A DNA stretch of 57,843 nucleotides, taken from NCBI GenBank assembly GCA_964414055.1, contig CAYPVD010000002.1, positions 1 to 57,843 on the forward strand. Direction: 5' to 3'. Source of the stretch: an uncultured Fibrobacteraceae bacterium. GTDB taxonomy: Bacteria; Krumholzibacteriota; Krumholzibacteriia; LZORAL124-64-63. Positions 16,337 through 44,423 of this stretch are shown here, one piece after another; positions within the stretch are counted from its first letter, which is position 1, and each line of letters starts with the position of its first letter. The position numbers and the translations under genes are program-made. A model generated the notes under the pieces. It made no database searches. It was not told the origin of the DNA and was given only the letters and a program-made list of their open reading frames with translations.

Positions 16337-16382
16337 TGATTGCAACAATACCATAGGGCCCGTCAAGACCCGGGCCCGAGCC

Positions 16383-16518
16383 TTCAACTTCAGGGCGGGG
16401 TGGAAGTCCCCACCGGCGGTAACAGCCCGCGAGCTTGTGTCCAAGGCCTTTGGCCGCACATGCTGATCCGGTGTGATTCCGGAGCCGACAGTGAGAGTCT
16501 GGATGGGAGAAGTTGGCG
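16383..16518 (+). promoter_or_regulatory. FMN riboswitch (RFN element)
   Basis: Matches the conserved RFN core: CUUCAGGGCGGGGUGGAAGUCCCCACCGGCGGUAACAGCCCGCGAGC ... GAUCCGGUGUGAUUCCGGAGCCGACAGUGAGAGUCUGGAUGGGAGAAG. P1 pairs CAACUUC (16385-16391) with GAAGUUG (16509-16515). Lies directly upstream of ribD. Confidence 0.92.
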
Positions 16519-20400: not shown

Positions 20401-20457
20401 AGGCCGGTTCTGCCGGTCGTCGTTGCAATCACGCCCCCGGTGGGTTAAAATTGATGC

Positions 20458-20484
20458 GGGAAGGCGCAGCCTTCCCTTCTGCTT
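20458..20484 (+). terminator. candidate terminator hairpin downstream of the rib operon
   Basis: GGGAAGG-CGCAG-CCTTCCC followed by TTCTGCTT. Read directly. The U-tract is imperfect. Confidence 0.4.
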
Positions 20485-20561: not shown

Positions 20562-21017
20562 TTGGGTAAGCGCAGAAAGGGACGCGAGATCGTTCTGCAA
20601 TCCATGTACGCTTCCATGATCAGCGGCGCGCCGCTGCTGGAAGTCCTGGACGATCAGATCCAACGTCGGGAGTCGGCGCCCGAGACGGCGGCGTTCGCGC
20701 GCCAGCTGGCGGGTAAGGTCAAGGCGCATAGCGCCGATATCGACCGCTGGCTCAAGACCCTGGTCACCAGCAACTGGGATCCGGACCGGCTGGGCTCCCT
20801 GGAAATCGTCATCCTGTCCCTGGGCCTGGCGGAACTGCGCTACAGTCCGGACGTACCTCCGGCCGTGGTCATCAACGAGGCTCTCGAATTGACTCATCGC
20901 TACTGCGAGGACGGCGCCGTGGGCTTCGTGAACGGGGTGCTGGACAAGGCCGCTTCAGAGATCACGGACCGGGACGGGACCGCCCCCTCCGGCAACGCAA
21001 CCGAGGATCAAGCGTGA
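20562..21017 (+). CDS. nusB: transcription antitermination factor NusB
   Basis: TTG start directly after an in-frame stop. N-terminus GKRRKGREIVLQSMYA and the later AELRYSPDVPPAVVINEALELTHRY are NusB-like. Confidence 0.85.
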   Translation: MGKRRKGREIVLQSMYASMISGAPLLEVLDDQIQRRESAPETAAFARQLAGKVKAHSADIDRWLKTLVTSNWDPDRLGSLEIVILSLGLAELRYSPDVPPAVVINEALELTHRYCEDGAVGFVNGVLDKAASEITDRDGTAPSGNATEDQA

Positions 21018-21826
21018 GATCATCCACCCCCGATCACTGGCAGCGCTTCTGGGATCAGGCCGAGGCCATCGACCTGGATGAGGTCTACGACAACGACGGC
21101 AGGCTCGTCCGCGAGATCACACGGCTGTACGACCTGGAGTCCATGGGGGATCTGAGCGGCGTCCGCATCCTGGAGGTGGGAGCCGGCAGCGGGCGCGACG
21201 CCGTGGCCCTGGCCCGGGCCGGGGCGGAGGTCGTCACCATCGACTACGTACGCGGCTCCCTGGATCTGACGGCCAGAGAGGCCGCTGCAGCCGACGTGAC
21301 CGTCTTTCCCGTCTGCGGCGACGGCCTGGGCTCCTCTTTTCCCGACGGGACCTTCGACGTGGTCTTCCACCAGGGGCTGCTGGAACATTTCCGCGATCCG
21401 CTGCCCCTGTTGCAGGACAACATCCGCATCCTCAAGCCGGGCGGTTTCCTGGTGGTGGACGTGCCCCAGACCTTCCACTACTACACCCTGGGCAAGCAGG
21501 TCCTCATCGCCCTGAACCGCTGGTTCGCCGGCTGGGAGACCCAGTTCACCGTCGGCCAGCTGGAACGGATCATGGCGGGCCAGGGTTTGGAACTGGTGCG
21601 CAGCTACGGCGACTGGATGGTGCCGGGGCTCTGGTACCGCGCCCTGCGCAAGGTGCTTGTGACCAGGTTGGGCTGGAAACTGCCCATGCATCCGGAGCCC
21701 ATCGGGCCGCTGGCCCGGCTGGGCGAGAAGTGGCGCGACTGGTTCGGCGGCAAGCGATTGTCCCTTTACACCACGCCGACCATCGGGGTCATCGGTCGCA
21801 AGCCCCGGCCGGGGTCCGGCCGTTGA
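21014..21826 (+). CDS. class I SAM-dependent methyltransferase
   Basis: GTGA overlap with nusB. Motif I ILEVGAGSGRDAVALARAG, then VVTIDY, and DVVFHQGLLEHFRDP. Confidence 0.8.
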   Translation: MRSSTPDHWQRFWDQAEAIDLDEVYDNDGRLVREITRLYDLESMGDLSGVRILEVGAGSGRDAVALARAGAEVVTIDYVRGSLDLTAREAAAADVTVFPVCGDGLGSSFPDGTFDVVFHQGLLEHFRDPLPLLQDNIRILKPGGFLVVDVPQTFHYYTLGKQVLIALNRWFAGWETQFTVGQLERIMAGQGLELVRSYGDWMVPGLWYRALRKVLVTRLGWKLPMHPEPIGPLARLGEKWRDWFGGKRLSLYTTPTIGVIGRKPRPGSGR

Positions 21827-21863
21827 TCTCCAGCGCGGAGGACGTTCCCTGAAACTGCTCGCG

Positions 21864-22976
21864 GTGAACTGGCGGGATATCGAGGACCCCCTGGGGGGCG
21901 GGGCCGAACTGCACCTGCACCACATCCTCAAGGGGGCTGCGGCGGCGGGTTGGGAAGTCGATCTGGTCTGCAGCGGCTATGAGGGTGCGCCGCGCACCGG
22001 GGTCATCGACGGTGTGAACATCCACCGCCGCGGCCACTGGGCCGTGGCCAATTTCGTGCTGCCGCCGGTGGTCCGTAGCATGCTGCGCCGCAGCCGCTAC
22101 GACCTGCTGGTCGAGGACATCAACAAGATCCCCTTCTACACGCCCCTGTACCGCGACGGTGTTCCGCTGGTCGCCGTCGTGCCGCACCTGTTCGGGCGGA
22201 CAGTCTACCGGGAAACCAACCCGGTGACGGCCAGCTATGTGTACGCGGCCGAAAGTCTCATCCGGCATCTGTACCGCGATGTGGATTTCGAGGTCATCAG
22301 CCCCTCGACCCGGGACGACCTCATCGCCCGGGGGCTGGATCCCGAACGCATCCGGACCATCTACTGCGGCATGGATCACGCCCGTTTCACCCTTGATGAT
22401 CCGCCGCCCAGGGAAGATGAGGCGCCCCTGGTGGTCACCTGGAGCCGCCTGCTCCGCTACAAGAGCATCGATGTGGCCCTGCGGGCTTTCGATGTCATCC
22501 ACCGGGAGCTGCCCCGGGCCCGCATGCTGGTCATGGGACGGGGGCCGGACGAAGCCCGTCTGCGCCGCCTGTGCACGAGACTCGGCCTGGACGAGGTGGT
22601 GGAGTTCAGGGGGTTCCAGCCCTGGGACGAACTGGTCAGGACCCTGCACCGCTGTCACGTGTTCCTGAATCCCAGCCCCAAGGAAGGATGGGGGCTGACC
22701 GTGATCGAGGCCAACCAGTGCGGGTTGCCGGTCGTCGCCAGCGATCGCCCTGGCCTGAAGGATTCTGTGCGCGACGGGGAGACCGGACTGCTGGTCCCCT
22801 ACGGCGACCACCGGGCCATGGCCGCGGCCGCCCTGGGTCTGCTGAGGGACCGGGAAACCTGGTCCAGGTTCAGTGAAGCAGCCAGGCGCTGGGCGGCCGG
22901 CTTCAGCTGGCAGCGCTGTGTTGACGAGTCGCTGGCCTATTTCCAGGAGGTCGCCGGCCGGGGTGACGCTTCATGA
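21864..22976 (+). CDS. glycosyltransferase family 4 (GT-B)
   Basis: 370-aa ORF with C-terminal EGWGLTVIEANQCGLPVVASDRPGLKDSVRDGETGLLVP. The true start may be slightly upstream, since LKLLAVNWRD reads through in frame. Confidence 0.8.
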   Translation: MNWRDIEDPLGGGAELHLHHILKGAAAAGWEVDLVCSGYEGAPRTGVIDGVNIHRRGHWAVANFVLPPVVRSMLRRSRYDLLVEDINKIPFYTPLYRDGVPLVAVVPHLFGRTVYRETNPVTASYVYAAESLIRHLYRDVDFEVISPSTRDDLIARGLDPERIRTIYCGMDHARFTLDDPPPREDEAPLVVTWSRLLRYKSIDVALRAFDVIHRELPRARMLVMGRGPDEARLRRLCTRLGLDEVVEFRGFQPWDELVRTLHRCHVFLNPSPKEGWGLTVIEANQCGLPVVASDRPGLKDSVRDGETGLLVPYGDHRAMAAAALGLLRDRETWSRFSEAARRWAAGFSWQRCVDESLAYFQEVAGRGDAS

Positions 22977-24007
22977 CGGGGGAGCGTTCGGCACCCCGGG
23001 GCTCGTCCCTGCGCCCGTTGCTGGTGTTCGCCGGCAAGCTCCTGATCAGTTCGGTGCTGATCTGGTTCGTCCTGTCGCGCCTGTCGTTGACCGAGATCAC
23101 CGCCGCCATGACCCATCCCCGCTGGGGATTGCTGGTGGCCGCCTTCGCGGTCTACGGGATCTCGGCGCTGGGCGGGGCCCTGCAGTGGGCCTGGATCCTG
23201 CGTGCCGGCGGCATCCGGGTCTCGCGGCGACGCATCCTGCGCGTCTATTTCATCGGCCTGTTCTTCAACAACTTCCTGCCTGCGAACATCGGGGGCGACG
23301 CCTGGAAGATCGTCGACCTGGGCGGTCAGGAAGGACGGCGGCTGGGGGTGTTCTGCGCGACCCTGCTGGACCGGCTCATCGGGCTGGGAGCGCTGTCGCT
23401 GGCGGCGGTGCTCGTGCTGCTGGGCACGGCCCTGGGGGGCGTGCCGTTGCCCGGGGTCACCCTGGTGATGATCCCCGTCCTGCTGATCCTGATGCTGGTG
23501 CTGGTGGTGCTGCTTTCCCGCCGTCTGGGCGGGTGGGGTGTGTCCCTGCTGACCCGTGTCGGGTTGGGGCGGCTGGCGGCCCCCCTGGAGCGTGTGACGG
23601 GGGAACTCGGTCTCTACCGGCCCCAGGTCGGTCTGTTGCAGCGCGTATTCCTGTTCAGCATGGGGGTCCAATCCCTGCGCATGGCCACCCATATCCTGGT
23701 GGCTCTGGGGCTTGGATACGTGCTGGACGGATCCCAGATCCTGCAACTGCTGGTGCTGGTCCCGGTGCTGGCGGTGAGTCTGACCCTGCCGGTGACCATC
23801 AACGGCATCGGCCTGCGGGAATCCGTCTCGGCGAGTCTGCTGACCTGGTCGGGCCTGGCGGGACCCCAGGCGGTGGCCATGGAAGTGGCCGCCTACCTGG
23901 TGCAGGTCTTCTTCAGCCTCAGCGGCGGGATCCTGCTGCTGACCCGCCGGGGAGGGACCGGAACTTCCGGGGCTGCCGACGGTTCCGAATCGGTCGATGT
24001 TTTGTGA
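22973..24007 (+). CDS. UPF0104 / lysylphosphatidylglycerol-synthase-TM-like flippase-like membrane protein
   Basis: ATGA overlap. Polytopic: LLISSVLIWFVLSRL, then RVYFIGLFFNNFLPANIGGDAWK, typical of this family. Confidence 0.65.
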   Translation: MTGERSAPRGSSLRPLLVFAGKLLISSVLIWFVLSRLSLTEITAAMTHPRWGLLVAAFAVYGISALGGALQWAWILRAGGIRVSRRRILRVYFIGLFFNNFLPANIGGDAWKIVDLGGQEGRRLGVFCATLLDRLIGLGALSLAAVLVLLGTALGGVPLPGVTLVMIPVLLILMLVLVVLLSRRLGGWGVSLLTRVGLGRLAAPLERVTGELGLYRPQVGLLQRVFLFSMGVQSLRMATHILVALGLGYVLDGSQILQLLVLVPVLAVSLTLPVTINGIGLRESVSASLLTWSGLAGPQAVAMEVAAYLVQVFFSLSGGILLLTRRGGTGTSGAADGSESVDVL

Positions 24008-24118
24008 CGGTCCGGTTGGCTGGTTGTTGCCGGTGCGGCCGTGTGTTAGGTTCTGCGGGCCCGTTTTCGCGTGGTCGCCGCGCGTCATGGTGGATTCCAG
24101 CTGTGCGAAGGTGATGTC

Positions 24119-26878
24119 TTGACGAAATCCGTATTATCCCGTCCCCAGTTCCTGGTCGCCGTCGCTGTTTTCCTGGTGGCCCTGGGTGTCTACTCCTCCA
24201 CCATGGGACCCACGATCAACTTCTGGGATTGTGGTGAATTCGTGACCACAAGCCACATCGTGGGCATTCCCCATCAGCCGGGAACCCCCCTGTACGTCCT
24301 GGTGGGGCGGGTCTTCGATATCCTGTTGGGACAGGCCGACATCACCCGCCCCAGCTACGAGACGGCCCGCGCCCTGAACTTCATGTCGGCATTCTTCAGC
24401 GCCCTGGCCGTGGCCTTCATCTACCTGCTGATCTGGGAACTGGCCCGGAGGTCAGACCCCGACGCCGGCTGGCTGGCCCATGCGGGCGGTATCGTCGGCG
24501 CCTTCTTCCTGGCGTTTTCCGAGACCTTCTGGAACAATGCCATCGAGGCCGAGGTCTACGGGCTGGCGGGATTCATGATGGCCCTGCTCTCCTGGCTGGC
24601 CGTACGCTGGTATGACACCCGTCAGCAGTGGCGCAGCAACAACCTGCTGCTGCTGATCATCTACCTGCTGGGATTGGGGGTGGGGTTCCACCTGGGGACC
24701 CTGCTGGCCTATCCGGGGATATTCCTGCTCGTCCTGCTGGCCAGGCCCAATCGCCTGCCCATCTACGATCTGTTGTTGATGAGTGCCGGGCTGGCCATCT
24801 TCCTGCTCTCGACCGCCAGCGGCAACAACGCCCTCATCATGTTGTTGCTGGGGATCTATGTCCTGCTGGTCATTTTCCGGAGTGTCCAGGGGAGGCATTT
24901 CGTCCTGCTGGGCAGCACCCTGTTCTTCGTGGGGCTGACCGTCCACGCGATGATGATGATCCGCGCCGGGGCCAACCCCGAGCCCATCATCAACCAGACG
25001 GACCCGGACAATTTCCACACCCTGCTGAAGGTCATCCGCCGCGAGCAGTATCCGCCCATGAATCCCCTGGTGCGCAGGGCGCCCCTGGGGTGGCAGTTCG
25101 GCTATTTCTACCACTACCTGCTGGAGCAGTTCTATTTCCTGGGCCCGGGCAAGGGCGCCCTCACGGTGCTGACCACGGTCCTGGGGCCCATCTTCCTGGC
25201 CCTGGTCGGGCTGTTCCAGGGGCTGCGCAGGGTGCGGCTGCTGATCCTGGTGCCCTTGACGGCCTACCTGATCAACGGCGAGATCCTGACCCTGTACCTG
25301 AACTTCACCGACCACGAGGTTCGCGACCGGGACTACTTCTACTTCGCGGCCTTCATGTTCTTCGCGGTGTTCATCGGTCTGGGGGCGAGTTCCCTGTTGC
25401 GCTTCCTGGCCGGTGACGAGGGCGAATCCGCCGCCCAGATCGAGGCCTCGGGCGGCAACTGGATGACCGACATCAAGGCCGTCGCCCCGGGTTCGGGCGT
25501 CAAGGCGGCGGCATTCCTGCTCGTGCTGCTGGCCCTGTTGCCCCTGGCTCCGGGACAGACGAAGTATTTCCAGCACGACCGTTCCCAGAACCGCATCGCC
25601 TACGAGTACGCCTGGAACATCATGGCGGGGCTGGATGAGAACGCCATCGTCTTCACCAACGGCGACAACGACACTTTCCCCATCTGGTACCTGCAGATCG
25701 TGGAGAAATTCAGGACAGACGTCTCGGTGGTGAACCTGTCCCTGGTCAATCTCCCGTGGTACATCAAGCAGAACAAGCATGCGGAAAACGGCGTGGACAT
25801 GAAGCGTTCGGACGCGGAGATCGACGCCCTGCAGCCCCGTCTCTTCGCCGACCCCAAGACGGGGAAACGGACCCTGGTCATGGTCAAGGACTACGTCCTG
25901 CACGACATCATCACCACCAACCGGGCCGGCAAGAACAGGCCGGTGTTCTTCGCGGTGACCATTCCCCGGGAAAACATGGAACGGTACTACAACAACCTGC
26001 GCATGGAGGGCATGGCCTACCGCCTGGTGGATACCAAGGGGCCCGACGGTTTGCCCACCACCGATCCCCAGCGGGTGCTGGAGAACATCCTGGGCGTGTA
26101 TCGGATGGGTTCGCTCATGACCGGCGACACTCCTGAAAGGCAACAGGCCTTTGCCCGGATGACCGGTCTGCCCGTTACCGAGCAGGGCGAGATCGTTCTC
26201 GGACAGCGCGGACGGGATCTGAACGCCGGCCGGCTGAACACGCTGAACCATATGCTGGGCAAGGTCCGCACGGACATCTTCCGCAACAAGAACGCCGTGC
26301 ACCTGCTGGGCAACTACCCGGCCGCGTTGAACCGGGCGGGTTACGAGTTCTACCTGATGGCCGACAAGGTGGCCGAGACCGACAGCGCGGCCTACCGCGA
26401 GAACCTGGCCAAGTCCATCATCGCCTTCGAGGCCAGTCTGGCCATCGAACCTTTCAACGACCAGGCCCTGGATTTCTATCCCCTGCTGCTGGTCCAGGAT
26501 TATCGCGACGACGATGCCAAGGCCTTCCTGAGTTCCCTGTCGGGCAATGTCCCGCCCGAGATGGAGGAGAAGGTCGTCTACACCGCGCTGCGCGGCATGC
26601 TGGGCGGAGGCGCCAGCGATCTGGCGTTGGGGTGGATCCAGGAGCAGATCCAGGCGCATCCGGACCGCAAGTTCTACTATCAGGTCCAGTTCACCATCTA
26701 CCAGGCCATGGGGCAGCGCGACATGGCGCGGGGGGTCATGGAGAACTGGGAACGCCAGAGCGGCGAACGGGATCCGGACATGGTCCAGGCCCTGAAGGAT
26801 ATGCAGCAGGAGGCCCTGCAGCGCGAGCAGCAGCGCATCGAGGATGCGGCGGGACAGCACAACCGAGAGCGGAACTGA
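24119..26878 (+). CDS. DUF2723 / TMEM260-like GT-C fold glycosyltransferase with C-terminal TPR-like region
   Basis: TTG 24119 (GAAGGTG upstream) or GTG 24071. Motifs NFWDCGEFVTTSHIVGIPHQPGTPLY, many TM helices, the periplasmic block TNGDNDTFPIWYLQIVEKFRTDVSVVNLSL, and a helical repeat tail. Confidence 0.7.
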   Translation: MTKSVLSRPQFLVAVAVFLVALGVYSSTMGPTINFWDCGEFVTTSHIVGIPHQPGTPLYVLVGRVFDILLGQADITRPSYETARALNFMSAFFSALAVAFIYLLIWELARRSDPDAGWLAHAGGIVGAFFLAFSETFWNNAIEAEVYGLAGFMMALLSWLAVRWYDTRQQWRSNNLLLLIIYLLGLGVGFHLGTLLAYPGIFLLVLLARPNRLPIYDLLLMSAGLAIFLLSTASGNNALIMLLLGIYVLLVIFRSVQGRHFVLLGSTLFFVGLTVHAMMMIRAGANPEPIINQTDPDNFHTLLKVIRREQYPPMNPLVRRAPLGWQFGYFYHYLLEQFYFLGPGKGALTVLTTVLGPIFLALVGLFQGLRRVRLLILVPLTAYLINGEILTLYLNFTDHEVRDRDYFYFAAFMFFAVFIGLGASSLLRFLAGDEGESAAQIEASGGNWMTDIKAVAPGSGVKAAAFLLVLLALLPLAPGQTKYFQHDRSQNRIAYEYAWNIMAGLDENAIVFTNGDNDTFPIWYLQIVEKFRTDVSVVNLSLVNLPWYIKQNKHAENGVDMKRSDAEIDALQPRLFADPKTGKRTLVMVKDYVLHDIITTNRAGKNRPVFFAVTIPRENMERYYNNLRMEGMAYRLVDTKGPDGLPTTDPQRVLENILGVYRMGSLMTGDTPERQQAFARMTGLPVTEQGEIVLGQRGRDLNAGRLNTLNHMLGKVRTDIFRNKNAVHLLGNYPAALNRAGYEFYLMADKVAETDSAAYRENLAKSIIAFEASLAIEPFNDQALDFYPLLLVQDYRDDDAKAFLSSLSGNVPPEMEEKVVYTALRGMLGGGASDLALGWIQEQIQAHPDRKFYYQVQFTIYQAMGQRDMARGVMENWERQSGERDPDMVQALKDMQQEALQREQQRIEDAAGQHNRERN

Positions 26879-29799: not shown

Positions 29800-29969
29800 G
29801 CGGGCGGCCCCGGGATTCGGCCGGGTCTTTCCGGGTGGCGGCATTGGACAGCCGCGGTCCGTAATGATATGATTCGACATGGTTTGTAACGCAACCTGAC
29901 GGGCCTGGTTCAGTGCCCTCGCCTTCCCCGCAGGGGATTTTCCCGGGAGGCCCCGTGGCCAAGCAACGT

Positions 29970-33292: not shown

Positions 33293-33303
33293 GGTCCCCC
33301 GGG

Positions 33304-35439: not shown

Positions 35440-37877
35440 TGATGTGCGACAGGCACCGTGACGGATCCGGTCGGATGCCGACGGGACGGGTTCTCATGGC
35501 TGGTTTCCTGGCCTTGATGATCGGCACGGGAGTGGAAGCCGAGCCGGTTTTTCAGCCGCTGCTGGCCGCCCACGACATGACGAGCCTGCTAGAACACGAC
35601 GGGTTCGTGTATGGCGGATTGGATGGGGGCGGGCTGGTCGTGCGTCCGGTGGATGACCCGGGGCATGGCGAGCGGTGGTACGCCGGACTCGGTCTGGGAG
35701 GCAACGAGATCACGGATCTGGCCTGGACCGGAAGGTACCTCTGGGTGGCCACCGCCGACGGGGGGCTGACCCGCATCGGCGACCCCGGCGGGAATCCGGA
35801 TTTCCGGCAATACACGAGCAACCTGGGCAGCCTGGATATCACGGCGGTCACGGGCACGATCATCGGTGAGAGCGAACGGGTGTTCTACGGGATGCGTAAC
35901 GGTGGTTTGGGCCAGATCACCGATGGCTTGTCGGGAAACATCTACACCGCCGAACAGGACGATTTGATCGACAACGATATCAACGCCCTGGTGTTCTATC
36001 ATGACGACCTCTTCATCGCCACCCCTTCGGGGATCTCCCGCTTCGCGGGCAACGTGTTCACGACCCTCAACGAGGGTCTCCCTGCGGGAGGGGTCACGGA
36101 CCTTGTGACCACGGATGCGGACCAACTGCTGGCCGGAACCGAGGAAGGTGTGTACGGCTGGGACCCGGAGCTCGAATTGTGGCAGGCGGTGGGTAATTTC
36201 GGTTTCCCGGTCGGCGACCTCGCCGCCGGCCCGGCGGGGGTCTATGCCCTCAGGACAAAGTGGAGCGGACTTCTGCGCCGCTGGAACGGCGAGACCTGGA
36301 CCACGGTGGACATTTCCGAGTCCCGGTGTTCGGCGGTGGCTTCGGGGCGGGAACTCTGGTTTTCCGGCCCGTGGACCCGGCCCGACGGCTCCGCCGGCCA
36401 GGCCTACCTCGGCCATGTCTCGAATCAGGGAGTGACCGGAATCCATATCCTCGCGGCACCCCTGGTGCGCAACGCCGAGGGTGTGGCTTTCGATACCCAG
36501 GGGACGGCCTGGGTCGGCTCCTACGTGGCGAATGCGGTTTCCGGCCTGAAAGTCGAGGACGCCTGGATCAATATCTATTCCCTGGCCGAGGATTCGGACT
36601 ATGAATACGGTCTGTTCAACCATTACAGCAACATCCTGTCCATGACCGGCGATCTGCAGGGCCAGGTCTGGATCTCCCAGTACACAACCGGCCTGATCCG
36701 GCACGACCCTGTCACCGGGAAGGACACCTACTACACTCCCGCCGACGGGGGCATGTCCGGAGCCTTCATCCTGGACATGGTCGTGCACCCGGACGGACCA
36801 TTGATCACCACCCATGATATCGTCTGGAAGGAGGGCCGGGAGTATCCGGAGAAGGTAGACGTGCTGCTGGATACCGATCACGGCGACGACCCCGGGCAGT
36901 GGCTGACCCTGCCGTTGGACACGGGGGGCATCACCAGCACCAACCGGATCTGGAGCGCCCTGGTGGAGCGCCGTGACGTGGTGTGGTTCGCCGCCGAGGA
37001 CTACGGCCTTCTGCGGTGGGACATCAACGGGGACGGGCAGGGACCCGACGACCCCCTGACCTGGAGCGATTTCAGCGACGACCGCTGGGACGGTCCCCTG
37101 ACGGCTTTCTTCGGCTCCGGCAGCGATCCCAAGAAAGTCAAGGGTTTGGCCCTGGCGCCCGACGGGAGCATCTGGGCCGGCGGCAACGGGCTGGTGCGCT
37201 TCAGCTACGATGCGGTCTCGCGCCTGGCTACCGTCCTGGAGACCTACGGCGAGAAGACCAGCAACTTCCTGCCCGGCCTGGTCAGCGGATCTGTGTCCGA
37301 CGTGGTGGTCGACGGCAACGGGGACGCCTGGGTGACCAGCACGGCAGGTGTGAACCGGATCAGCTCCCGCGGCGGCGAGGTCACCGTCGACGCCTGGATC
37401 GACCTGCCCAACTACCTGGCCAATTCCAACTACGGGTTGCTCTACTCCACGGGGGTCATCGCACCATTGCCCGGCACGATCTACCGCGACCTGGCGGTGT
37501 CGCCGGACGGCAGGCATGTCCTGCTCTCGGCGGACAGGGGCGCCGTGCTCATCGACGTGGGCAGCGGAAGCGCCGGTGCCGGCCAGGCGAACCTAGCGGG
37601 GATCTACTGTTATCCCAATCCCTGGCATCCGACCGATAGCGGCGGTACCGTGAAGCTGGGTGGGCTTCCCGTGGATGAGCTGGGGGGCACGGGAGTGAAA
37701 GCGGAGGTCTATAACCTCGAGGGGGAACTCGTGTTTCGCAACACCGGCGTGCTGCCCGACCAGGGTTTCTGGGACGGACGTAATCGTTTCGGCGATACGG
37801 CGGCCACGGGGACCTATGTGGTGCGTGTTTCCTGGTCCGGCCAAGCGGTGACCATCCCCTTGAGCGTGGTGCGCTGA
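35436..37877 (+). CDS. secreted beta-propeller repeat protein with C-terminal FlgD-Ig/T9SS-like sorting domain
   Basis: ATGA overlap. Signal-like VLMAGFLALMIGTGVEA. Repeated propeller-like units (ITDLAWTGRYLWVATADGGLTRI, INALVFYHDDLFIATPSGISRF, VTDLVTTDADQLLAGTEEGVYGW). C-terminus CYPNPW...AEVYNLEGELVF...WDGRN..GDTAATGTYVVRV. Confidence 0.65.
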   Translation: MMMCDRHRDGSGRMPTGRVLMAGFLALMIGTGVEAEPVFQPLLAAHDMTSLLEHDGFVYGGLDGGGLVVRPVDDPGHGERWYAGLGLGGNEITDLAWTGRYLWVATADGGLTRIGDPGGNPDFRQYTSNLGSLDITAVTGTIIGESERVFYGMRNGGLGQITDGLSGNIYTAEQDDLIDNDINALVFYHDDLFIATPSGISRFAGNVFTTLNEGLPAGGVTDLVTTDADQLLAGTEEGVYGWDPELELWQAVGNFGFPVGDLAAGPAGVYALRTKWSGLLRRWNGETWTTVDISESRCSAVASGRELWFSGPWTRPDGSAGQAYLGHVSNQGVTGIHILAAPLVRNAEGVAFDTQGTAWVGSYVANAVSGLKVEDAWINIYSLAEDSDYEYGLFNHYSNILSMTGDLQGQVWISQYTTGLIRHDPVTGKDTYYTPADGGMSGAFILDMVVHPDGPLITTHDIVWKEGREYPEKVDVLLDTDHGDDPGQWLTLPLDTGGITSTNRIWSALVERRDVVWFAAEDYGLLRWDINGDGQGPDDPLTWSDFSDDRWDGPLTAFFGSGSDPKKVKGLALAPDGSIWAGGNGLVRFSYDAVSRLATVLETYGEKTSNFLPGLVSGSVSDVVVDGNGDAWVTSTAGVNRISSRGGEVTVDAWIDLPNYLANSNYGLLYSTGVIAPLPGTIYRDLAVSPDGRHVLLSADRGAVLIDVGSGSAGAGQANLAGIYCYPNPWHPTDSGGTVKLGGLPVDELGGTGVKAEVYNLEGELVFRNTGVLPDQGFWDGRNRFGDTAATGTYVVRVSWSGQAVTIPLSVVR

Positions 37878-39331
37878 TGCGAAAACCGCGGGTCCTGATC
37901 ATCGGCGCCGGTTCGGCCGGGCGCTCCCTCGTGGACGAGATCCAGGCCAAGGATCTGCCCGTGGAACCGGTGGCCTTCCTGGATGATGATCCTGCGCTGC
38001 AGGGGTCGACCGTCTGCGGTCTTCCCGTGACCGGTGGAACGGAAGAGCTGAAGGCCGCCTGCGACACGGTGGGGGCCGACCAGATCCTGCTGGCCATCCC
38101 TTCGGCCGGCGGCCCCCTGATCAGGCGGCTGGTCCTGCTGGCCAAGAAGGCGGGGCGCCCCTTGCGCATCGTGCCGGGTCTGCGGGACATCATCCTGGGC
38201 GACGTGAGTTTCCAGCAGGTGGCCGAGGTCCGTCCCGAGCACCTGCTGGGGCGCGAGAGCGTGGACTTCCAGGAGGAACCGGCCCGCCGGGTTGTCAGCG
38301 GTCGGACCGTTCTGGTCACCGGGGCCGGCGGATCCATCGGCGGGGAGCTGTGCCGCCGCCTGCTTCCTCTCGAGCCGGCCCGCCTGATCATGCTGGGCAG
38401 GGGTGAGAACAGCCTGTTCGAAATGGAGGCATCCCTGCGCAACGATTTTCCGCAGGCCCCCCTGCAACTGGTGGTCGCCGATGTCAGGGACAGCAAGAGG
38501 ATGTCGGTGCTCGCCGGGAGGATGGCTCCCGACCTGGTCCTTCATGCGGCGGCCCACAAGCATGTGCCCCTGATGGAGGACAACCCGGAAGAGGCCGTCA
38601 TGGTCAACGTGGGCGGAACGGCCAACGTGGTGGACCTGGCCCGGACGGTGGGCGCCGAGCGCTTCGTGCTGATCAGCACCGACAAGGCCGTCGAGCCCTC
38701 CAGCGTCATGGGGGCGACGAAGAAACTGGCCGAGGAGGTCGTCCGGCGCGCGGCCGCCGAGGGCGGCGGGACGCGGATGATGACCGTGCGCTTCGGCAAC
38801 GTGCTGGGCAGCAGGGGCTCGGTCATCCCCTTCTTCAAACGACGCATCGAGGCCGGTCTGCCCCTGCCGGTGACGCATCCGGATATGACGCGCTACTTCA
38901 TGACCATCAAGGAGGCGGCGCTGCTGGTGATCGAAGCCATGGTGCTGGGCGAGTCGGGTGCGACCTACATCCTGGAGATGGGCGAACCGGTCTCCATCCT
39001 GGAACTGGCCAAGAACCTCCTTGTGCTCTCGGGCGTAGCGGCGTCCGATGACGATTCATGGCCCCAGATCGATTTCACGGGTCTGCGGCCGGGCGAGAAG
39101 ATGCACGAGGCCCTCCATGAACCGCGGGAACGGATCCTGCCCAGCGCCAACCCCCTGATCCGCAAGGCGGTCATCCAGGGGCCGGATGAGCCCCTGGGCC
39201 CTTCGGACCAGGAGGCCCTGTTGGAGCTCGCCGCCCAGGGCGATATTCCTCAGCTGCGCCGCCTGCTGGCTGATCTTCTGGACAGCCCGGTGCTGGGGCC
39301 TGGAACGGGAGATGACCATGACCGGCAATGA
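37877..39331 (+). CDS. polysaccharide biosynthesis NDP-sugar 4,6-dehydratase (PglF/CapD/WbpM-like), without the usual N-terminal TM region
   Basis: TGATG junction. Motifs VLIIGAGSAGRSLV, VLVTGAGGSIGGELCRR, AAAHKHVPLME, ISTDKAV.PSSVMGATK, RFGNVLGSRGSV. Confidence 0.8.
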   Translation: MRKPRVLIIGAGSAGRSLVDEIQAKDLPVEPVAFLDDDPALQGSTVCGLPVTGGTEELKAACDTVGADQILLAIPSAGGPLIRRLVLLAKKAGRPLRIVPGLRDIILGDVSFQQVAEVRPEHLLGRESVDFQEEPARRVVSGRTVLVTGAGGSIGGELCRRLLPLEPARLIMLGRGENSLFEMEASLRNDFPQAPLQLVVADVRDSKRMSVLAGRMAPDLVLHAAAHKHVPLMEDNPEEAVMVNVGGTANVVDLARTVGAERFVLISTDKAVEPSSVMGATKKLAEEVVRRAAAEGGGTRMMTVRFGNVLGSRGSVIPFFKRRIEAGLPLPVTHPDMTRYFMTIKEAALLVIEAMVLGESGATYILEMGEPVSILELAKNLLVLSGVAASDDDSWPQIDFTGLRPGEKMHEALHEPRERILPSANPLIRKAVIQGPDEPLGPSDQEALLELAAQGDIPQLRRLLADLLDSPVLGPGTGDDHDRQ

Positions 39332-40520
39332 GGGCGGTATCGGAGGCAGGGTCTTCATCTCGCGCGACGAATTCCTGCCGTTTTTCCGGCCCGACGTCAG
39401 CGAACAGGAGATCGCCGCCGTGGCCGAGGTCCTGCGCTCGGGATGGCTGACGTACGGGGCCAAGGTGCGGGAGTTCGGCCGGGCCTGCGCGGACTATCTC
39501 CAGGTCCCCCGTGCGGAACCCGTATCGAGCTGCACGGCGGGATTGCACCTGGCCCTGGAGGCCCTGGAAGTCGGACCGGGGCACGAGGTGATCCTGCCGG
39601 CGTTGACTTTCGTGTCCACGCTCAGCGCCGTGGTCCACAGGGGTGCGAAGCCCGTACTTGCCGACGTGGACCCCGTCACCCTGTGTGTGAGTCCGGGTTC
39701 GTGCGGGGATCTCGTCACACCCCGGACTCGTGCCATCATTCCCGTGGACATGGGCGGGCATCCCTGCGACATGGCCGAGCTGCGCGAACTGGCGACAGCC
39801 AACGGCCTGCGCATCGTCCGCGACGCGGCCCACAGCTTCGGTGCCCGAGAGGGCGGCCGTCTTGTCGGCTCCGGCTGTGACGCCACCGTGTTCTCCTTCT
39901 ACGCCACCAAGTGCATCACCACCGGCGACGGAGGGCTGGTGACCTGCGACGACGACCACCTGGCCGATCGCATCGCGAGACTCGGTTTTCACGGCATGGA
40001 CGGCAACGCCTGGCAGCGTTACGGCGACAAGGGGCGCTGGTACTACGAGATCCTCGAACCAGGCTGGAAGTACCACCTGAGCGATCCCGCGGCGGCCCTC
40101 GGACTGGGGCAGCTGGCCCGCGCCGACGAGTTCATGGCCCGGCGTACGTCCATCGCCCGCAGCTATTCCTCGGCCCTGGCCGACCTGCCCGGGGTGACGG
40201 TGCCCCGTGTCGCCGACGGGATGACCTCCGCCTGGCATCTCTACCTGTTGCGGGTGGATCCGGACATCGTTCCCGGCGGCCGGGATCGTGTGATCGCTGA
40301 CCTGACCGCCAACCGGATCGGTTCATCGGTCCATTTCATCCCCCTGCACCATCACCCGGCCTTCAGGGAGTTGGCCGTCGAGTTCGGTGACCGCCTGCCG
40401 GAAACGGAGCATTACTTCCGGGCCGCCGTCAGTCTGCCTCTTTTTCCGGCCATGACCCCGCAGGATGTGGATGACGTGGTGACCGTGGTGCGGGCCAGCA
40501 TCCAGGCCGCCGTCGGGTGA
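39312..40520 (+). CDS. DegT/DnrJ/EryC1/StrS family aminotransferase (PglE-like)
   Basis: Track ORF trimmed to ATG 39312. Motifs FFRPDVSEQEIAAVAEVLRSGWLTYGAKV, LHLALEAL, DAAHSFGA, FSFYATKCITTGDGG (PLP lysine). Confidence 0.85.
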   Translation: MTMTGNEGGIGGRVFISRDEFLPFFRPDVSEQEIAAVAEVLRSGWLTYGAKVREFGRACADYLQVPRAEPVSSCTAGLHLALEALEVGPGHEVILPALTFVSTLSAVVHRGAKPVLADVDPVTLCVSPGSCGDLVTPRTRAIIPVDMGGHPCDMAELRELATANGLRIVRDAAHSFGAREGGRLVGSGCDATVFSFYATKCITTGDGGLVTCDDDHLADRIARLGFHGMDGNAWQRYGDKGRWYYEILEPGWKYHLSDPAAALGLGQLARADEFMARRTSIARSYSSALADLPGVTVPRVADGMTSAWHLYLLRVDPDIVPGGRDRVIADLTANRIGSSVHFIPLHHHPAFRELAVEFGDRLPETEHYFRAAVSLPLFPAMTPQDVDDVVTVVRASIQAAVG

Positions 40521-41608
40521 TGGGCACCGTGGGCGGACACGAACCCTACACCATCGAGCAGTCGGTCTCGTTGCCGGCGGACTGGGACGACCTGGTCCTG
40601 GCAGATCCGGCGGCCGAGTACACGCACTGCGCACACTGGCTGGAATCGGTCCGCCGTTGCTACGACGGTGCGAAGCTGCTGGTGCTCACGGTGCGGCAGG
40701 AGGGAGAACTGATCGGCGGTCTCGCCGCCGTTGACAGGAGGGTCGGCCGTCTCCGGCGGTTGGACAGCAGCCTCGACGGCACCACAGGCGGCCCTCTTTT
40801 GCACCGCCAACTGGACCAGATGTCGCGGCGCAGGTTGTTTCTGGAGCTGGTTCGCCGGTTCCGGGCGTTGCGCCGAGGTCCCTTGACCGCTCTGGGCATG
40901 GCCCTGAACGCCTCGGGAGAGGAAGCCTACGGGCCGCTGCTGGCGGGGGAGGGGGATTGGCTGCGCCATGACGCCCCGACAGCCGTGGTCTCCCTGTCAG
41001 GCGGTATCGAGGACGTGGAGAAGAACAAGCTGGTGATGAACAAGCGCAACGAACGAAACCGGGGCCTGCGGCGCGGAGCGGAAGTGTTCGCCACCAAGGA
41101 TCCGGCCTGGCTGGAGCGGTACTATCGACTGTATCTGCAGGCGGCCCGCCACTGGAAAGTGGAGCCGGTGCCGGAATCCTTCCTGCACAGCCTGCTCGAC
41201 GGCCCCGGGGATCGTGACGGCGCCGGCGATGTCTTCTTCACCTGCGTGAAGATCGGGGACCGGGTCATCGGCGGCCACCTGAATCTGCACCTGGGCGACA
41301 GGGTGTTCGCCTGGAACGGTGTGACGGATCCCGCCTACGCCCGCTCCCATTTTCCGGCCACGCTCTGTTTCTGGGGCGACATGGTGGAGGCCTGCCGACG
41401 CGGGGCGCTGTGGCTGGATTTTGGCGCCAGCGGTGTCGCGGCCTCCCTGTCGACCTTCAAGAAATATTTTGGTGCGCAGATGGAGCAGCGCGGCTACTAC
41501 ACCAGTGAATCGGCGGCCCTCAAACTGGCGAGAAAACTGCGCCGGGGGCCGGCGGGATCAGGCCGCCACCGGGTCCGCTGGCACGATACCCTGCGGAGGC
41601 GCTCGTGA
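40517..41608 (+). CDS. FemAB/CelD-like GNAT-fold acyltransferase
   Basis: Overlaps the upstream stop. Pattern AEYTHCAHWLESVRRCYDGAKLLVLTVRQEGELIGGLA, NKRNERNRGLRRG, GGHLNLHLGDRVFAWNGVTDP resembles the FemAB-like / BioF2-like acetyltransferase family. Confidence 0.55.
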   Translation: MMGTVGGHEPYTIEQSVSLPADWDDLVLADPAAEYTHCAHWLESVRRCYDGAKLLVLTVRQEGELIGGLAAVDRRVGRLRRLDSSLDGTTGGPLLHRQLDQMSRRRLFLELVRRFRALRRGPLTALGMALNASGEEAYGPLLAGEGDWLRHDAPTAVVSLSGGIEDVEKNKLVMNKRNERNRGLRRGAEVFATKDPAWLERYYRLYLQAARHWKVEPVPESFLHSLLDGPGDRDGAGDVFFTCVKIGDRVIGGHLNLHLGDRVFAWNGVTDPAYARSHFPATLCFWGDMVEACRRGALWLDFGASGVAASLSTFKKYFGAQMEQRGYYTSESAALKLARKLRRGPAGSGRHRVRWHDTLRRRS

Positions 41609-42924
41609 GTCTCATCAGGCCCGGATCGCGCATCTTCGCCAGCCGTCTCGTGCAGGTGGCCGCCAACGCGGCGGTGGTCCTGATCGTGGCCTCCATCCTG
41701 GGGCCCGAAGGCCAGGGTCACTACAGCCTGACCTTGGCCTTGGCTCTGTTGCTCGCCTCCCTGCTGGCGGGGGGGCAGGGGCTGGCCGCCGTCCCGTTGC
41801 TGCGGCGGGGAAGCCCGTCCGGCGCCCGGATCTTCAGGGCACAGCTGCTGTGGGCCGCGGGGGCGTTGGTGGTGATGCTGCTCCTGGCGGCGGCGACCAT
41901 GGCGCCGGGGCCGGCGGGGTTCCTCGCAGCCCACCTGGGCTGGTTCCCGGGGCTGGGATTCGTGGTCGTCGGCGCGGTCATGGGCATCCTGCTGTTCGAG
42001 ATCTTCTCCTATGATCTGCTGGCCCGCGGCCGGCTGGTGGTGGGGGCCGTGATCAACGGAACCAGGGCGCTGACCCACCTGGTACTGGTCTGTCTCGCGG
42101 CGGTGGCCGGGGCCCTGACTCTGGGCAAGGCCGTGGGGCTGGTGGCGGCGGCCCAGGCGCTGGGGGGATTTCTGGTTGTCGTGGTGGCGGGCAGGGAAAT
42201 CCGGCACGCCGTGGTCGGTGCCTCCGGAGCCGTAGCCGGCGACACGACCAGGTCGTCCGGCGACCCGCCCCTGTCCCTGACAGGGCTGATGATGTTCCTG
42301 GCTCGGAGAGGCTGGCTGGGACAGCTGTCGGCGGTGGCGTATTTTCTGTTGCTGCGCCTGGACCAGGCGTTGCTCGAACATTTCCGGGGTGCAGCCGAGG
42401 TGGGAGTGTATTCGGTGGCCGTGTATTTCGGCGAGATGCTGTGGCTGCTGCCCGGCGCCCTGACTCCCCTGCTTGTGCACAGCGCCACCGCCGAGCGGGG
42501 TGACGGCACGGGCGACCGTGATTCCCTGGGGGCGGTGAGACTGGGGTTGGTGGTGACACTGGCCGCGGGAATCCCCCTGTATTTCCTGGCCGGCCCGTTG
42601 CTGCCGTTCCTGGCGGGCGGGTCGTACGTGGCCTCGGGGCCGGCCCTGCGGGCGCTTCTGCCGGGGATCGTCGCCTTCGCGCCGGGGGCTGTTCTGGCCG
42701 GGGATTTCATCGGGCGCGGTCGTCCCCACTGGAATACCCAGGCCAGTCTCATAACCCTGGTCATCAACATCGTTGCTGGATTGTGGCTGATCCCCGTTCA
42801 CGGTGCCGTGGGTGCGGGATGGGCCAGCACCATCGCCTACACCTGCGGATCCGCCCTCATGATCGCGCGCTTCCTCTCCGCCAGCGGTTATCCATTTCGT
42901 TCCCTGTTCACCGGTCGTCCCTAG
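41605..42924 (+). CDS. Wzx-like oligosaccharide flippase (MOP superfamily)
   Basis: GTGA overlap. Polytopic 439 aa with N-terminus RIFASRLVQVAANAAVVLIVASILGPEGQGHYSL, typical of polysaccharide flippases. Confidence 0.7.
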   Translation: MSLIRPGSRIFASRLVQVAANAAVVLIVASILGPEGQGHYSLTLALALLLASLLAGGQGLAAVPLLRRGSPSGARIFRAQLLWAAGALVVMLLLAAATMAPGPAGFLAAHLGWFPGLGFVVVGAVMGILLFEIFSYDLLARGRLVVGAVINGTRALTHLVLVCLAAVAGALTLGKAVGLVAAAQALGGFLVVVVAGREIRHAVVGASGAVAGDTTRSSGDPPLSLTGLMMFLARRGWLGQLSAVAYFLLLRLDQALLEHFRGAAEVGVYSVAVYFGEMLWLLPGALTPLLVHSATAERGDGTGDRDSLGAVRLGLVVTLAAGIPLYFLAGPLLPFLAGGSYVASGPALRALLPGIVAFAPGAVLAGDFIGRGRPHWNTQASLITLVINIVAGLWLIPVHGAVGAGWASTIAYTCGSALMIARFLSASGYPFRSLFTGRP

Positions 42925-43051
42925 ATATGCGGCTGCGGCCACGGCCTCCGGTATCTTCCCCGCCGGGAGGCGGACTCTTGCTTCCCGGGAACCGGTGTGC
43001 TTAAATCGCGCCGGTTCGCAATACACCATCTCTTGCCGGAGCTCCGATTCC

Positions 43052-43954
43052 ATGACCAACGACCGCGGCCAGCACGCTCCTGACTTCCTCGGCATCGGTG
43101 TCGTGCGCGGTGGCACGACCTGGTTGTGGCGGCAACTCGCCCAGCATCCGGACGCCTGGATGACCCCCGTCAAGGAACTCAACTACTTCACGAGGCGGCA
43201 CCCCATCATGGTGGCCCGCCCCGACGACAAGACGCATCGGGCGGAACAGCAGCCCAACCTGTTCGTGCAAAGCCTCCAGCGGTTCAACCCCGGGAAAATC
43301 TCCCACTATCTGCAGACCTATTCCCTGGATTCCGTGCGCTGGCGGTGGCGCTTCTACCGCGGCCGGCCGGGGCCGAAGTGGTACCGCTCGCTATTCGAGG
43401 CGGCCGGCGGCCGACTGACAGGCGACATCACGCCTCATTATTCCGGACTGGGTGAAACCGCCGTGCGTGAAATCATGTCTTTCCTGCCGGATGTGAAGAT
43501 CATCCTGATATTGCGTGATCCCATCGACCGCGACTGGTCCCACGCCGTGCACTACCTCACCTACAACCTCGGATGCAAGCGCGACGAACTGACCACCGAC
43601 CGGATCCTCTCCCATGTGCACGACCCTTCCACGCGCTTGCGCGGTGATTACCTGCCGATGCTCGATCTCTGGCGCCGATATGTCCCGCCCGCCCGGTTTC
43701 GTGTCATGTTCTTCGACGATATCCAGCGACGACCGGTGGAGTTTCTCGACGAGATCCACGAGTTCCTCGGCCTTTCCCCCTTCACGCCCCCTGGATTGAT
43801 CACCAAGGTCAACGCCAGCGGGGCTACCGCCATCCCGGCCGAGGTGGAACGCCATCTGGCGGAACTTCATTTGCCTGCGCTGGAGAAAATGGCGCAGGAG
43901 ATGGGGGGGTATGCGGTTGCCTGGCGTGATCGCGCCCGCCTCCTTGTGGTATGA
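43052..43954 (+). CDS. PAPS-dependent sulfotransferase family protein
   Basis: ATG 43052. 5-prime-PSB-like PDFLGIGVVRGGTTWL and 3-prime-PB-like ILILRDPIDRDWSH motifs. Confidence 0.7.
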   Translation: MTNDRGQHAPDFLGIGVVRGGTTWLWRQLAQHPDAWMTPVKELNYFTRRHPIMVARPDDKTHRAEQQPNLFVQSLQRFNPGKISHYLQTYSLDSVRWRWRFYRGRPGPKWYRSLFEAAGGRLTGDITPHYSGLGETAVREIMSFLPDVKIILILRDPIDRDWSHAVHYLTYNLGCKRDELTTDRILSHVHDPSTRLRGDYLPMLDLWRRYVPPARFRVMFFDDIQRRPVEFLDEIHEFLGLSPFTPPGLITKVNASGATAIPAEVERHLAELHLPALEKMAQEMGGYAVAWRDRARLLVV

Positions 43955-44290: not shown

Positions 44291-44423
44291 AAATTGACGA
44301 AGGACCAGGGGTTGGCGGGACGCCGCAGGAGCGGCACAACTTACACGGATGTAATGAGTTCCCGCCAAAACCCTGACTTTTCCCCGCCGATCCATGGTGA
44401 TTTCCTTATTTGATCTGGAGCGC

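Follow-up and report, generated by a model that had tools for sequence, protein, structure and literature searches.

A predicted phylum-wide glycan operon of Candidatus Krumholzibacteriota that joins two GT-C glycosyltransferases to a PorZ homologue

We report a 23-kb glycan locus, at positions 21014-43954 of a 57,843-nucleotide (nt) stretch of contig CAYPVD010000002.1 (the window) from an uncultured bacterium, which is predicted from its gene content and order to be a core, phylum-wide operon of Candidatus Krumholzibacteriota. Its component families are known, and both three-component GT-C glycosylation and glycans that anchor type IX secretion system (T9SS) cargo are established concepts. 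What is new is the joining, in one phylum-wide housekeeping operon, of a PorZ homologue, a bacterial enzyme of the TMEM260 type and a scaffold made of a dead phosphoglycosyl transferase (PGT); our literature searches found no paper describing such an operon. Based on homology and gene context, we propose, with a probability of roughly 45%, that the locus encodes an envelope-glycoconjugate pathway in which periplasmic GT-C glycosylation is combined with a PorZ/VimA-type module that attaches T9SS cargo.

Gene order, boundaries and conservation

The locus consists of sixteen co-directional + strand open reading frames (ORFs) whose G+C content at third codon positions (GC3) is 0.79-0.90, in a window of ~66% G+C. 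The ORF list of the window and Pfam matches to NusB and MraZ bore out the claim of a first-pass annotation that sixteen such ORFs lie between nusB and the leader of the dcw cluster. Domain calls were made using Pfam, NCBIfam and PDB searches. Synteny was assessed in the surroundings of ORF8 homologues in ~80 species-representative genomes, and presence is counted over assessable loci. Homologues, like the related loci, carry the labels Candidatus Krumholzibacteriota or Krumholzibacteriia. The genes are as follows (GT, glycosyltransferase; TM, transmembrane; CTD, C-terminal domain; aa, amino acids).

nusB, 20562-21017 (+): upstream boundary; Pfam NusB, 88 bits; overlap of 4 nt between its stop and the start of ORF1
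ORF1, 21014-21826 (+): class I S-adenosylmethionine-dependent methyltransferase; Methyltransf_11, 65 bits; present in 48/48
ORF2, 21864-22976 (+): GT4 (GT-B) glycosyltransferase, coupled to ORF3; Glycos_transf_1, 129 bits; 48/48
ORF3, 22973-24007 (+): UPF0104/LPG_synthase_TM (PplT) flippase-like protein with ~7 hydrophobic segments; PF03706, 110 bits; 48/49
ORF4, 24071-26878 (+): GT-C glycosyltransferase of the TMEM260 family, 935 aa, comprising a luminal domain and a tail resembling tetratricopeptide repeats (TPR); 53/53
ORF5, 26878-27924 (+): short-chain dehydrogenase/reductase (SDR), UDP-glucuronate 4-epimerase-like; PDB 6zl6 family, E 1e-70; MoeE5, E 6e-60; 61/61
ORF6, 27921-28874 (+): ArnC/GtrB-type polyprenyl-phosphate GT2 with two C-terminal TM helices; NCBIfam ArnC, 194 bits; 67/67
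ORF7, 28867-29799 (+): soluble GT2; Pfam GT2; 77/79
ORF8, 29955-32540 (+): YfhO-like GT-C glycosyltransferase, 861 aa
ORF9, 32537-33292 (+): Dpm1/PpgS/AglJ-like GT2 of the polyprenyl-phosphate hexosyltransferase type, without TM helices; GT2, 94 bits; 73/74
ORF10, 33289-35439 (+): GT2 domain, WbaP-like membrane/CoA-binding-like region and degenerate PGT relic; 55/55
ORF11, 35436-37877 (+): PorZ-like secreted protein with two beta-propellers, Reg_prop repeats and a probable T9SS type A CTD; 52/53
ORF12, 37877-39331 (+): soluble PglF/PseB/CapD-type UDP-N-acetylhexosamine (HexNAc) 4,6-dehydratase; Polysacc_synt_2, 338 bits; variable gene, 33/51
ORF13, 39312-40520 (+): DegT/ArnB/PseC-type pyridoxal phosphate-dependent sugar aminotransferase; DegT_DnrJ_EryC1, 377 bits; variable gene, 22/51
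ORF14, 40517-41608 (+): FemX/VimA-type (Acetyltransf_6) aminoacyl transferase; PF13480, 64 bits against a cut-off of 22; 47/47
ORF15, 41605-42924 (+): MOP-superfamily (Wzx/MurJ-like) lipid-linked glycan flippase with ~11 TM segments; 26/28
ORF16, 42995-43954 (+): sulfotransferase; Sulfotransfer_3, 61 bits; window-specific insertion, 0/28 loci spanning Wzx to mraZ
mraZ, 44394-44900 (+): downstream boundary and start of the dcw cluster; Pfam MraZ; followed by rsmH and ftsI

Across the related genomes the order runs from nusB through the methyltransferase, GT4, UPF0104, TMEM260-like, SDR, ArnC-like, GT2, YfhO-like, Dpm1-like, GT2-relic and PorZ-like genes, then the variable PglF and DegT genes, and on through the FemX-like and Wzx genes to mraZ. 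Thirteen of the 16 genes occur in at least 93% of assessable loci (~80 species) with their order unchanged; gene-order conservation, which had been proposed as a check on the locus, thus extends to ~80 related genomes. Apparent violations of this order were traced to paralogue cross-hits among GT2 genes at truncated contig ends and were rejected as rearrangements. The recurrence of the order in ~80 independent genomes is more than chance. In the deep-branching Zodletone genome L075, where the ORF8 homologue is only 30% identical, the TMEM260-like, SDR, ArnC-like, GT4, GT2, YfhO, Dpm1-like and GT2-relic genes are still present, as are a PorZ-like gene with Por_Secre_tail and the PglF, FemAB and Wzx genes. 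The TMEM260-like gene of L075 is a tandem duplicate (522-5790 of that locus) with clear TPR repeats in both copies, and its GT4 gene (7710-8864) lies between the ArnC-like gene and the GT2 rather than upstream.

Median identity to the window proteins is 70-79% for the methyltransferase, GT4, SDR, ArnC-like and Dpm1-like genes (ORF1 70%; ORF9 79%, the locus maximum), compared to 60% for nusB and 44% for mraZ. The fastest-evolving genes are those for the PorZ-like (42%) and FemX-like (45%) proteins. With enzymes conserved beyond the level of nusB and mraZ, the locus behaves as a housekeeping locus, opposite to O-antigen and capsule loci.

All start/stop overlaps listed in the first-pass annotation are present in the sequence. 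Overlaps of 4 nt (ATGA/GTGA-type) occur at 21014, 22973, 27921, 32537, 35436, 40517 and 41605, and 1-nt overlaps at 26878 and 37877; the junctions at 28867 and 39312 are overlaps of 8 nt and 20 nt, respectively. ORF10 probably starts at a TTG at 33289, giving a 4-nt overlap with ORF9, and the start of ORF8 is 29955 rather than 29913, which gives 861 aa, the length of database copy P0001. These overlaps define four coupled blocks, namely nusB-ORF1, ORF2-3, ORF4-7 and ORF8-15. The overlap between nusB and ORF1 recurs in the related loci L001 and L002; it is the sole pointer to the co-expression with housekeeping genes that had been suggested earlier. Upstream, the housekeeping flank of FMN riboswitch, ribD, ribE, ribBA, ribH and nusB runs straight into the glycan locus. 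The riboswitch lies at 16382-16518 (+) ahead of ribD (Rfam RF00050, 111 bits), and between ribH and nusB a promoter-like site (20423-20451) is followed by a terminator-like hairpin (20458-20476).

The sole sizeable internal gap, between ORF7 and ORF8, holds the best sigma-70-like site of the locus (29845-29873; TGGACA-17-TATGAT, extended TG), a possible internal promoter, although such sites are overall no more numerous than expected by chance. Promoter and terminator scans of 20-40 kb gave site counts no higher than in shuffles. From 40 to 46 kb, seven terminator-like sites were found against 2.9 ± 1.6 expected, one of them just after ORF15, which is weak evidence. A tRNA scan of the window found none, and the locus is therefore not a tRNA-flanked island.

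Two pairs of genes in the locus are paralogous: ORF7 and the N-terminal GT2 domain of ORF10 (28867-29799 and 33304-34200; 29% identical, E 6e-23), and the synthase-type GT2s ORF6 and ORF9 (27921-28874 and 32537-33292; 26% identical). These pairs suggest that duplication contributed to the origin of the two halves of the locus.

Enzymes and the secreted protein

Single-sequence PDB searches of ORF8 and ORF11 returned nothing significant, so family profiles and AlphaFold models searched with Foldseek were needed for both. The ORF11 model (pLDDT 88) has two beta-propellers of the seven-bladed type followed by an immunoglobulin-like T9SS CTD, and its top Foldseek neighbour over the full length is PorZ (5m11; E 4e-27, TM-score 0.58/0.62). 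Sensor domains of Bacteroides hybrid two-component proteins are the runners-up (E ~1e-21, TM-score ~0.3). The ORF11 family profile matches 5m11 with an E value of 2.5e-17 over the last propeller blades and the CTD. NCBIfam T9SS_PorZ is the top family in 38/38 aligned orthologues, and the T9SS type A sorting domain TIGR04183 is matched at E ≤ 0.01 in 33/38, although the window protein scores 16.1 bits on the sorting domain (TIGR04183/PF18962), below the cut-off of 23. NCBI annotates one orthologue as a T9SS type A sorting-domain protein, and the L075 orthologue scores 24.8 bits on Por_Secre_tail. Among the orthologues listed, the best match to the PorZ model has an E value of 9e-18; distant full-length relatives score higher, up to 103 bits. 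None of ten distant matches sampled from a profile search across 1.84 billion representatives attains the equivalog cut-off for PorZ, so that orthology to the PorZ of Bacteroidota is inferred and ORF11 is classed here as a PorZ homologue outside Bacteroidota. In P. gingivalis (Porphyromonas gingivalis), PorZ supplies anionic lipopolysaccharide (A-LPS) to the PorU sortase (PMC11285876).

A GH32-like glycoside hydrolase encoded at 915-2726 (- strand) ends in a domain of ~85 aa (DPNPFNP...GTYFY...) that matches the hidden Markov model of the ORF11 CTD (E 6e-4) and, weakly, FlgD_ig, Por_Secre_tail and the PorU CTD. This hydrolase, in the same window as ORF11, is probably cargo of the T9SS type. 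A word-indexed protein search for other cargo using the 90-aa CTD of this protein gave four candidates, none significant.

The family profile of ORF14 matches the aminoacyl-tRNA-dependent peptide synthase 9wqy (E 2.3e-16) as well as FemX. Its sole NCBIfam match, at 46.5 bits against an equivalog cut-off of 260, is TIGR03019, which VimA of P. gingivalis matches too (PMC7468200). ORF14 is therefore placed by profile in the aminoacyl-tRNA-dependent FemX/VimA-type family, with the shared TIGR03019 match as the link to VimA. In P. gingivalis, the VimA-made 2-N-seryl sugar of a pentasaccharide linker is the attachment point of cargo (PMC7468200, PMC13086638).

ORF4 and ORF8 are both GT-C enzymes. 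ORF4 scores 157.7 bits on Pfam PF11028 (TMEM260-like; gathering cut-off 24.2) and aligns with the human TMEM260 structure 9rql (E 2.4e-16), with D53 and D532 at the positions of D52 and D441. In 9rql, D52 in the first loop aligns the donor and the luminal D441 is the catalytic base, and the TPR region of TMEM260 grips an extended strand of immunoglobulin-like IPT domains (bioRxiv 10.64898/2026.03.17.711096). The TPR tail gives a weak signal in ORF4 of the window and a clear one in orthologues. An exact-sequence search of public assemblies with ORF4 of the window found no record of it. A literature search on bacterial DUF2723/TMEM260 homologues found no characterised member.

The ORF8 model, built with 34 homologues (pLDDT 85, pTM 0.86), has AftD, ArnT, STT3, PglB and EmbA/B as its best Foldseek neighbours. 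Helices extend to residue 547, followed by a beta-rich domain (549-820) and a terminal helix (823-856); as modelled, this is the YfhO layout of membrane core, extracytoplasmic beta-rich domain and last TM helix. Against a Pfam PF09586 (YfhO) cut-off of 28.5 bits, ORF8 of the window reaches 23.7 bits and its L075 orthologue 37 bits; many orthologues have a precomputed PF09586 match or are named YfhO.

As for the synthases, ORF6 aligns end to end with the ArnC structures 9hwj/9bhc/8vxh (E 2e-57), and ORF9 matches AglJ, PpgS and Dol-P-hexose transferase in NCBIfam. Gene coupling suggests that ORF4 pairs with ORF5/6 and ORF8 with ORF9; family analogy suggests the reverse. The best structure matches of ORF5, the 6zl6 group and MoeE5, we take to be UDP-glucuronate 4-epimerases.

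In ORF10, the GT2 domain is conserved, with the motifs DNAS, NPD and YFEDVDWC invariant in the orthologue alignment. Pfam matched GT2 and CoA_binding_3 in this protein and no Bac_transf domain, and the profile built from 29 orthologues covers WbaP structures at residues 6-325 of ~480 only. The same alignment shows the decay of the PGT half directly: remnants of GxLxLVGP and PGLTGxW are kept, and neither the Asp-Glu dyad before LPxxWQ nor KFRSM is conserved. An active PGT in ORF10 was ruled out by the absent Bac_transf, the partial WbaP alignment and the lost catalytic signature. The PGT half is evidently a degenerate relic, which leaves the locus without an evidently active initiating PGT.

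ORF2 has weak matches to BshA, MshA and GlcNAc-PG synthase (51 bits against a cut-off of 480). Glycolipid operons that combine a GT4 with UPF0104, gpgSDF and hexSDF, are on record (PMC12713373). ORF15 itself gives a weak MOP flippase signal, and a scan of its family matched MurJ in 11/13, Polysacc_synt in 9/13 and MatE in 4/13 members. No small flippase of the GtrA or ArnE/F type was found among the 16 ORFs, and ORF3 (UPF0104) and ORF15 (MOP) are candidate flippases for sugars linked to undecaprenyl phosphate (Und-P). ORF16 appears to have been inserted recently, adding sulfation in this lineage. It lies where the G+C content of the window is lowest (0.60) and is set off from ORF15 by a terminator-like hairpin (42960-42973), and the gap between Wzx and mraZ is only 200-480 nt in the 28 loci that lack it.

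The motif calls of the first-pass annotation were upheld for 14 of the 16 ORFs by Pfam, NCBIfam or PDB; the other two were refined, ORF10 to a GT2 with a PGT relic and ORF11 to a PorZ-like protein. Its two large GT-C proteins are confirmed, ORF4 by the TMEM260 match and ORF8 by Foldseek; the outcome named as refuting, that HMM or structure searches would place them outside the GT-C enzymes, did not occur. The two lipid-phosphate-sugar synthases it named correspond to ORF6 (an ArnC match) and ORF9 (Dpm1/AglJ/PpgS-like), and these four identities support its reading of glycosylation at the periplasmic face. In agreement with it, Pfam and NCBIfam detect no Wzy polymerase, Wzz, WaaL, Wza/Wzc or ABC exporter in the 16 ORFs. 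ORF3 and ORF15 were considered as Wzy or WaaL and ruled out by their UPF0104/LPG_synthase_TM and MOP flippase assignments. The poor fit to a standard O-antigen or capsule pathway is strengthened by the phylum-wide conservation.

Elsewhere in the window, the FtsI/PBP3 homologue of the dcw cluster (46916-49030) carries a PASTA domain (59 bits), a domain more typical of Gram-positive penicillin-binding proteins. SelA (L-seryl-tRNA selenium transferase; 7146-8585, 382 bits) is encoded, and the organism probably uses selenocysteine. A 437-aa ORF after ftsY (14967-16280) has no Pfam or NCBIfam match, and a 555-aa ORF before smc (8411-10078) matched only a C-terminal SPOR domain.

A proposed anchor-glycan pathway and its rivals

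In the pathway that we propose, the glycoconjugate would be built mostly at the periplasmic face. ORF5 would convert UDP-glucuronic acid to UDP-galacturonic acid (GalA), and ORF12 and ORF13 would produce UDP-4-amino-4,6-dideoxy-HexNAc. ORF14 would add an amino acid to the sugar amine of this product, leaving a free alpha-amine. Sugars would be loaded onto Und-P by ORF6 (ArnC-type) and ORF9 (Dpm1-type), such that ORF5 followed by ORF6 would yield an Und-P-uronic acid, probably GalA, and ORF9 an Und-P-hexose. ORF2, ORF7 and the GT2 domain of ORF10, the last held at the membrane by the dead WbaP-like scaffold, may assemble a lipid-linked glycan or glycolipid that incorporates the N-aminoacylated amino sugar. 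The product would be methylated by ORF1 and, in this genome, sulfated by ORF16, and ORF15 and/or ORF3 would flip the lipid-linked intermediates across the membrane. There, ORF4 would transfer a sugar from Und-P-sugar, most likely onto Ser/Thr of exported proteins, and ORF8 would transfer a sugar to a glycan or lipid acceptor. ORF11, which would itself be exported by the T9SS, is envisaged to bind the finished aminoacyl-sugar glycolipid and present it to a PorU-type sortase. T9SS cargo would then become amide-linked to the free amine of the glycolipid, a functional analogue of the A-LPS linking saccharide of P. gingivalis.

This integrated PorZ/VimA-type pathway is ranked first because the PorZ-like, FemX-like and Wzx genes are fixed in adjacent positions and are translationally coupled. 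The order from the PorZ-like gene through the variable PglF and DegT genes to the FemX-like and Wzx genes is conserved and coupled, and persists in the deepest-branching genomes.

Several points weigh against this pathway. Every function in it is assigned from homology and gene context, and the T9SS link is drawn here from genes of the locus and window; a literature search for T9SS in Krumholzibacteriota found no paper linking the phylum to this system. On the PorZ equivalog model NCBIfam NF052228 (cut-off 260) ORF11 scores 36.7 bits and its relatives no more than 103, it resembles PorZ in sequence only over the last third and the CTD, and double Reg_prop propellers occur in sensor proteins too. 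WbaP, Wzy and WaaL, all needed for A-LPS (PMC13086638), are absent or dead at this locus, and ORF12 and ORF13 are both absent in 10/50 genomes. Finally, A-LPS synthesis in P. gingivalis proceeds without GT-C enzymes or Und-P-sugar synthases. A more specific version of the proposal, in which T9SS cargo is anchored not to LPS made by Wzy/WaaL but to a dedicated lipoglycan that is built for the most part periplasmically by GT-C enzymes from Und-P-sugars and capped with an aminoacylated 4-amino-6-deoxy sugar, with all steps, the PorZ delivery protein and a bacterial protein O-glycosyltransferase of the TMEM260 type included, encoded by this one housekeeping operon, is speculative, at about one chance in four.

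Two other acceptors have to be weighed. The first is a lipoglycan or lipopolysaccharide (LPS) decorated for reasons unrelated to secretion, with the GT4 and UPF0104 proteins making and flipping a glycolipid primer, and the GT-C enzymes using Und-P donors to extend or decorate this primer, or lipid A/core, with GalA and hexose. Possible analogues are mycobacterial phosphatidylinositol mannoside/lipomannan/lipoarabinomannan (PIM/LM/LAM), Rhizobium RgtE/RgtA-D, and ArnC/ArnT. Such pathways need no polymerase, ligase or exporter, and housekeeping-level conservation fits a core envelope lipid. In addition, the epimerase-like ORF5 is coupled directly to the ArnC-like ORF6, ORF8 is structurally closest to AftD and ArnT, and ORF2 and ORF3 form a GT4/UPF0104 pair like those of gpgSDF and hexSDF (PMC12713373). 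We nevertheless consider this explanation improbable, as it accounts for neither the PorZ-like nor the FemX-like gene and ORF4 is closest to a protein-modifying enzyme.

The second is general O-glycosylation of periplasmic proteins. Here ORF9 or ORF6 would make the Und-P-sugar and ORF4, guided by its TPR region, would place the first sugar on Ser/Thr, with ORF8, the cytoplasmic GTs and Wzx extending or supplying the glycan; the PorZ-like protein would be a client or an unrelated passenger. ORF4 does keep both catalytic Asp residues of a proven protein O-mannosyltransferase, in addition to luminal and TPR-like regions, no gene of the locus is more conserved than the Dpm1-like ORF9, and the arrangement resembles actinobacterial Ppm1/Pmt and eukaryotic Dpm1/TMEM260 (PMC10214176). 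However, the explanation leaves the PorZ homologue (52/53) and the FemX/VimA-type enzyme (47/47), both fixed and coupled, without a role, as well as the need for a second GT-C enzyme with its own ArnC-type synthase, and no characterised bacterial TMEM260 homologue was found in the literature; we regard it as unlikely, marginally more so than lipid decoration. Both explanations are compatible with the proposed PorZ/VimA-type pathway because the operon may serve several acceptors.

An ordinary Wzx/Wzy-dependent O-antigen or capsule locus, with wzy, waaL, wzz and an initiating PGT elsewhere in the genome, would account for the MOP/Wzx flippase, the several Leloir GTs, the sugar-tailoring genes, the variable PglF/DegT part and the inserted sulfotransferase, but is very improbable in view of order and content kept across ~80 species down to 30% ORF8 identity, enzymes better conserved than nusB and mraZ (the opposite of such loci), the missing Wzy_C, Wzz, Wza/Wzc and ABC signatures in the 16 ORFs, the degenerate PGT domain, and two GT-C enzymes and two Und-P-sugar synthases that are foreign to that scheme.

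In Bacteroidota the anchor-glycan genes are scattered, and their assignment took two decades. If the proposed pathway is correct, the locus provides a one-operon parts list for T9SS cargo attachment outside that phylum. For the bacterial relatives of TMEM260, which in humans is a protein O-mannosyltransferase linked to disease, it is also the first genomic context. The dedicated-lipoglycan version, if true, would represent an ancestral or alternative mode of T9SS surface attachment and give bacterial TMEM260 homologues their first functional context. A glycan pathway conserved like core cell-division genes across an uncultured phylum is a candidate defining envelope trait and, because the enzymes are compactly encoded, several steps are open to heterologous expression without cultivation.

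Relation to known systems

One close comparison is with the linking-saccharide pathway of P. gingivalis A-LPS (Wbp/Vim: PorR/WbpE, VimA, VimE, VimF, WbaP, PorS/Wzx) together with PorZ. Shared with it are a DegT-type aminotransferase, a FemAB/TIGR03019-type amino-acid transferase and a GT4 (PMC7468200, PMC13086638). Both also have proteins of the WbaP-like and Wzx flippase types, along with a PorZ-like double propeller that ends in a T9SS CTD. In contrast to P. gingivalis, the genes here form one operon that includes the porZ-like gene, in an organism outside Bacteroidota, and the predicted amino sugar is a 4-amino-4,6-dideoxy-HexNAc, where P. gingivalis has a 2,3-diamino uronic acid. The locus lacks homologues of VimE, WbpA, WbpB and WbpD as well as Wzy, WaaL and Wzz, its WbaP-like domain is degenerate, and it adds two GT-C enzymes and two Und-P-sugar synthases.

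Wzx/Wzy-dependent O-antigen loci share the Wzx-type flippase, Leloir GTs and sugar-tailoring genes. Unlike them, this locus is phylum-conserved instead of hypervariable and is without Wzy, Wzz, WaaL and an active PGT.

Three-component systems (GtrA/GtrB/GtrC, CsbB/GtcA/YfhO, ArnC/ArnEF/ArnT, GT136) use a GT2 synthase, a flippase and an extracytoplasmic GT-C enzyme (PMC11127046); the locus has the first and the last of these, with its UPF0104 and MOP proteins as candidate flippases. They usually decorate a polymer that is encoded elsewhere, whereas here two sets are interleaved in one conserved operon with no flippase of the GtrA/ArnEF type.

Assembly of mycobacterial PIM/LM/LAM employs the GT4 enzymes PimA/B, Ppm1, and the GT-C enzymes Mpt/Aft/Emb. 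As in that pathway and in gpgSDF/hexSDF, the locus would combine a GT4 primer enzyme, a flippase-like protein, polyprenyl-phosphate-sugar synthases and GT-C extension without Wzy, WaaL or an exporter; it differs from PIM/LM/LAM in having no inositol- or PG-specific signature.

With TMEM260/Dpm1, which carries out Dol-P-Man-dependent O-mannosylation of IPT domains, and with Ppm1/Pmt, the comparison centres on ORF4. Human TMEM260 has 707 aa, whereas ORF4 is bacterial and 935 aa long, with ~250 residues alignable by sequence. ORF4 shares the Pfam family, the catalytic Asp pair and the luminal/TPR architecture, and a Dpm1-like synthase is encoded near it.

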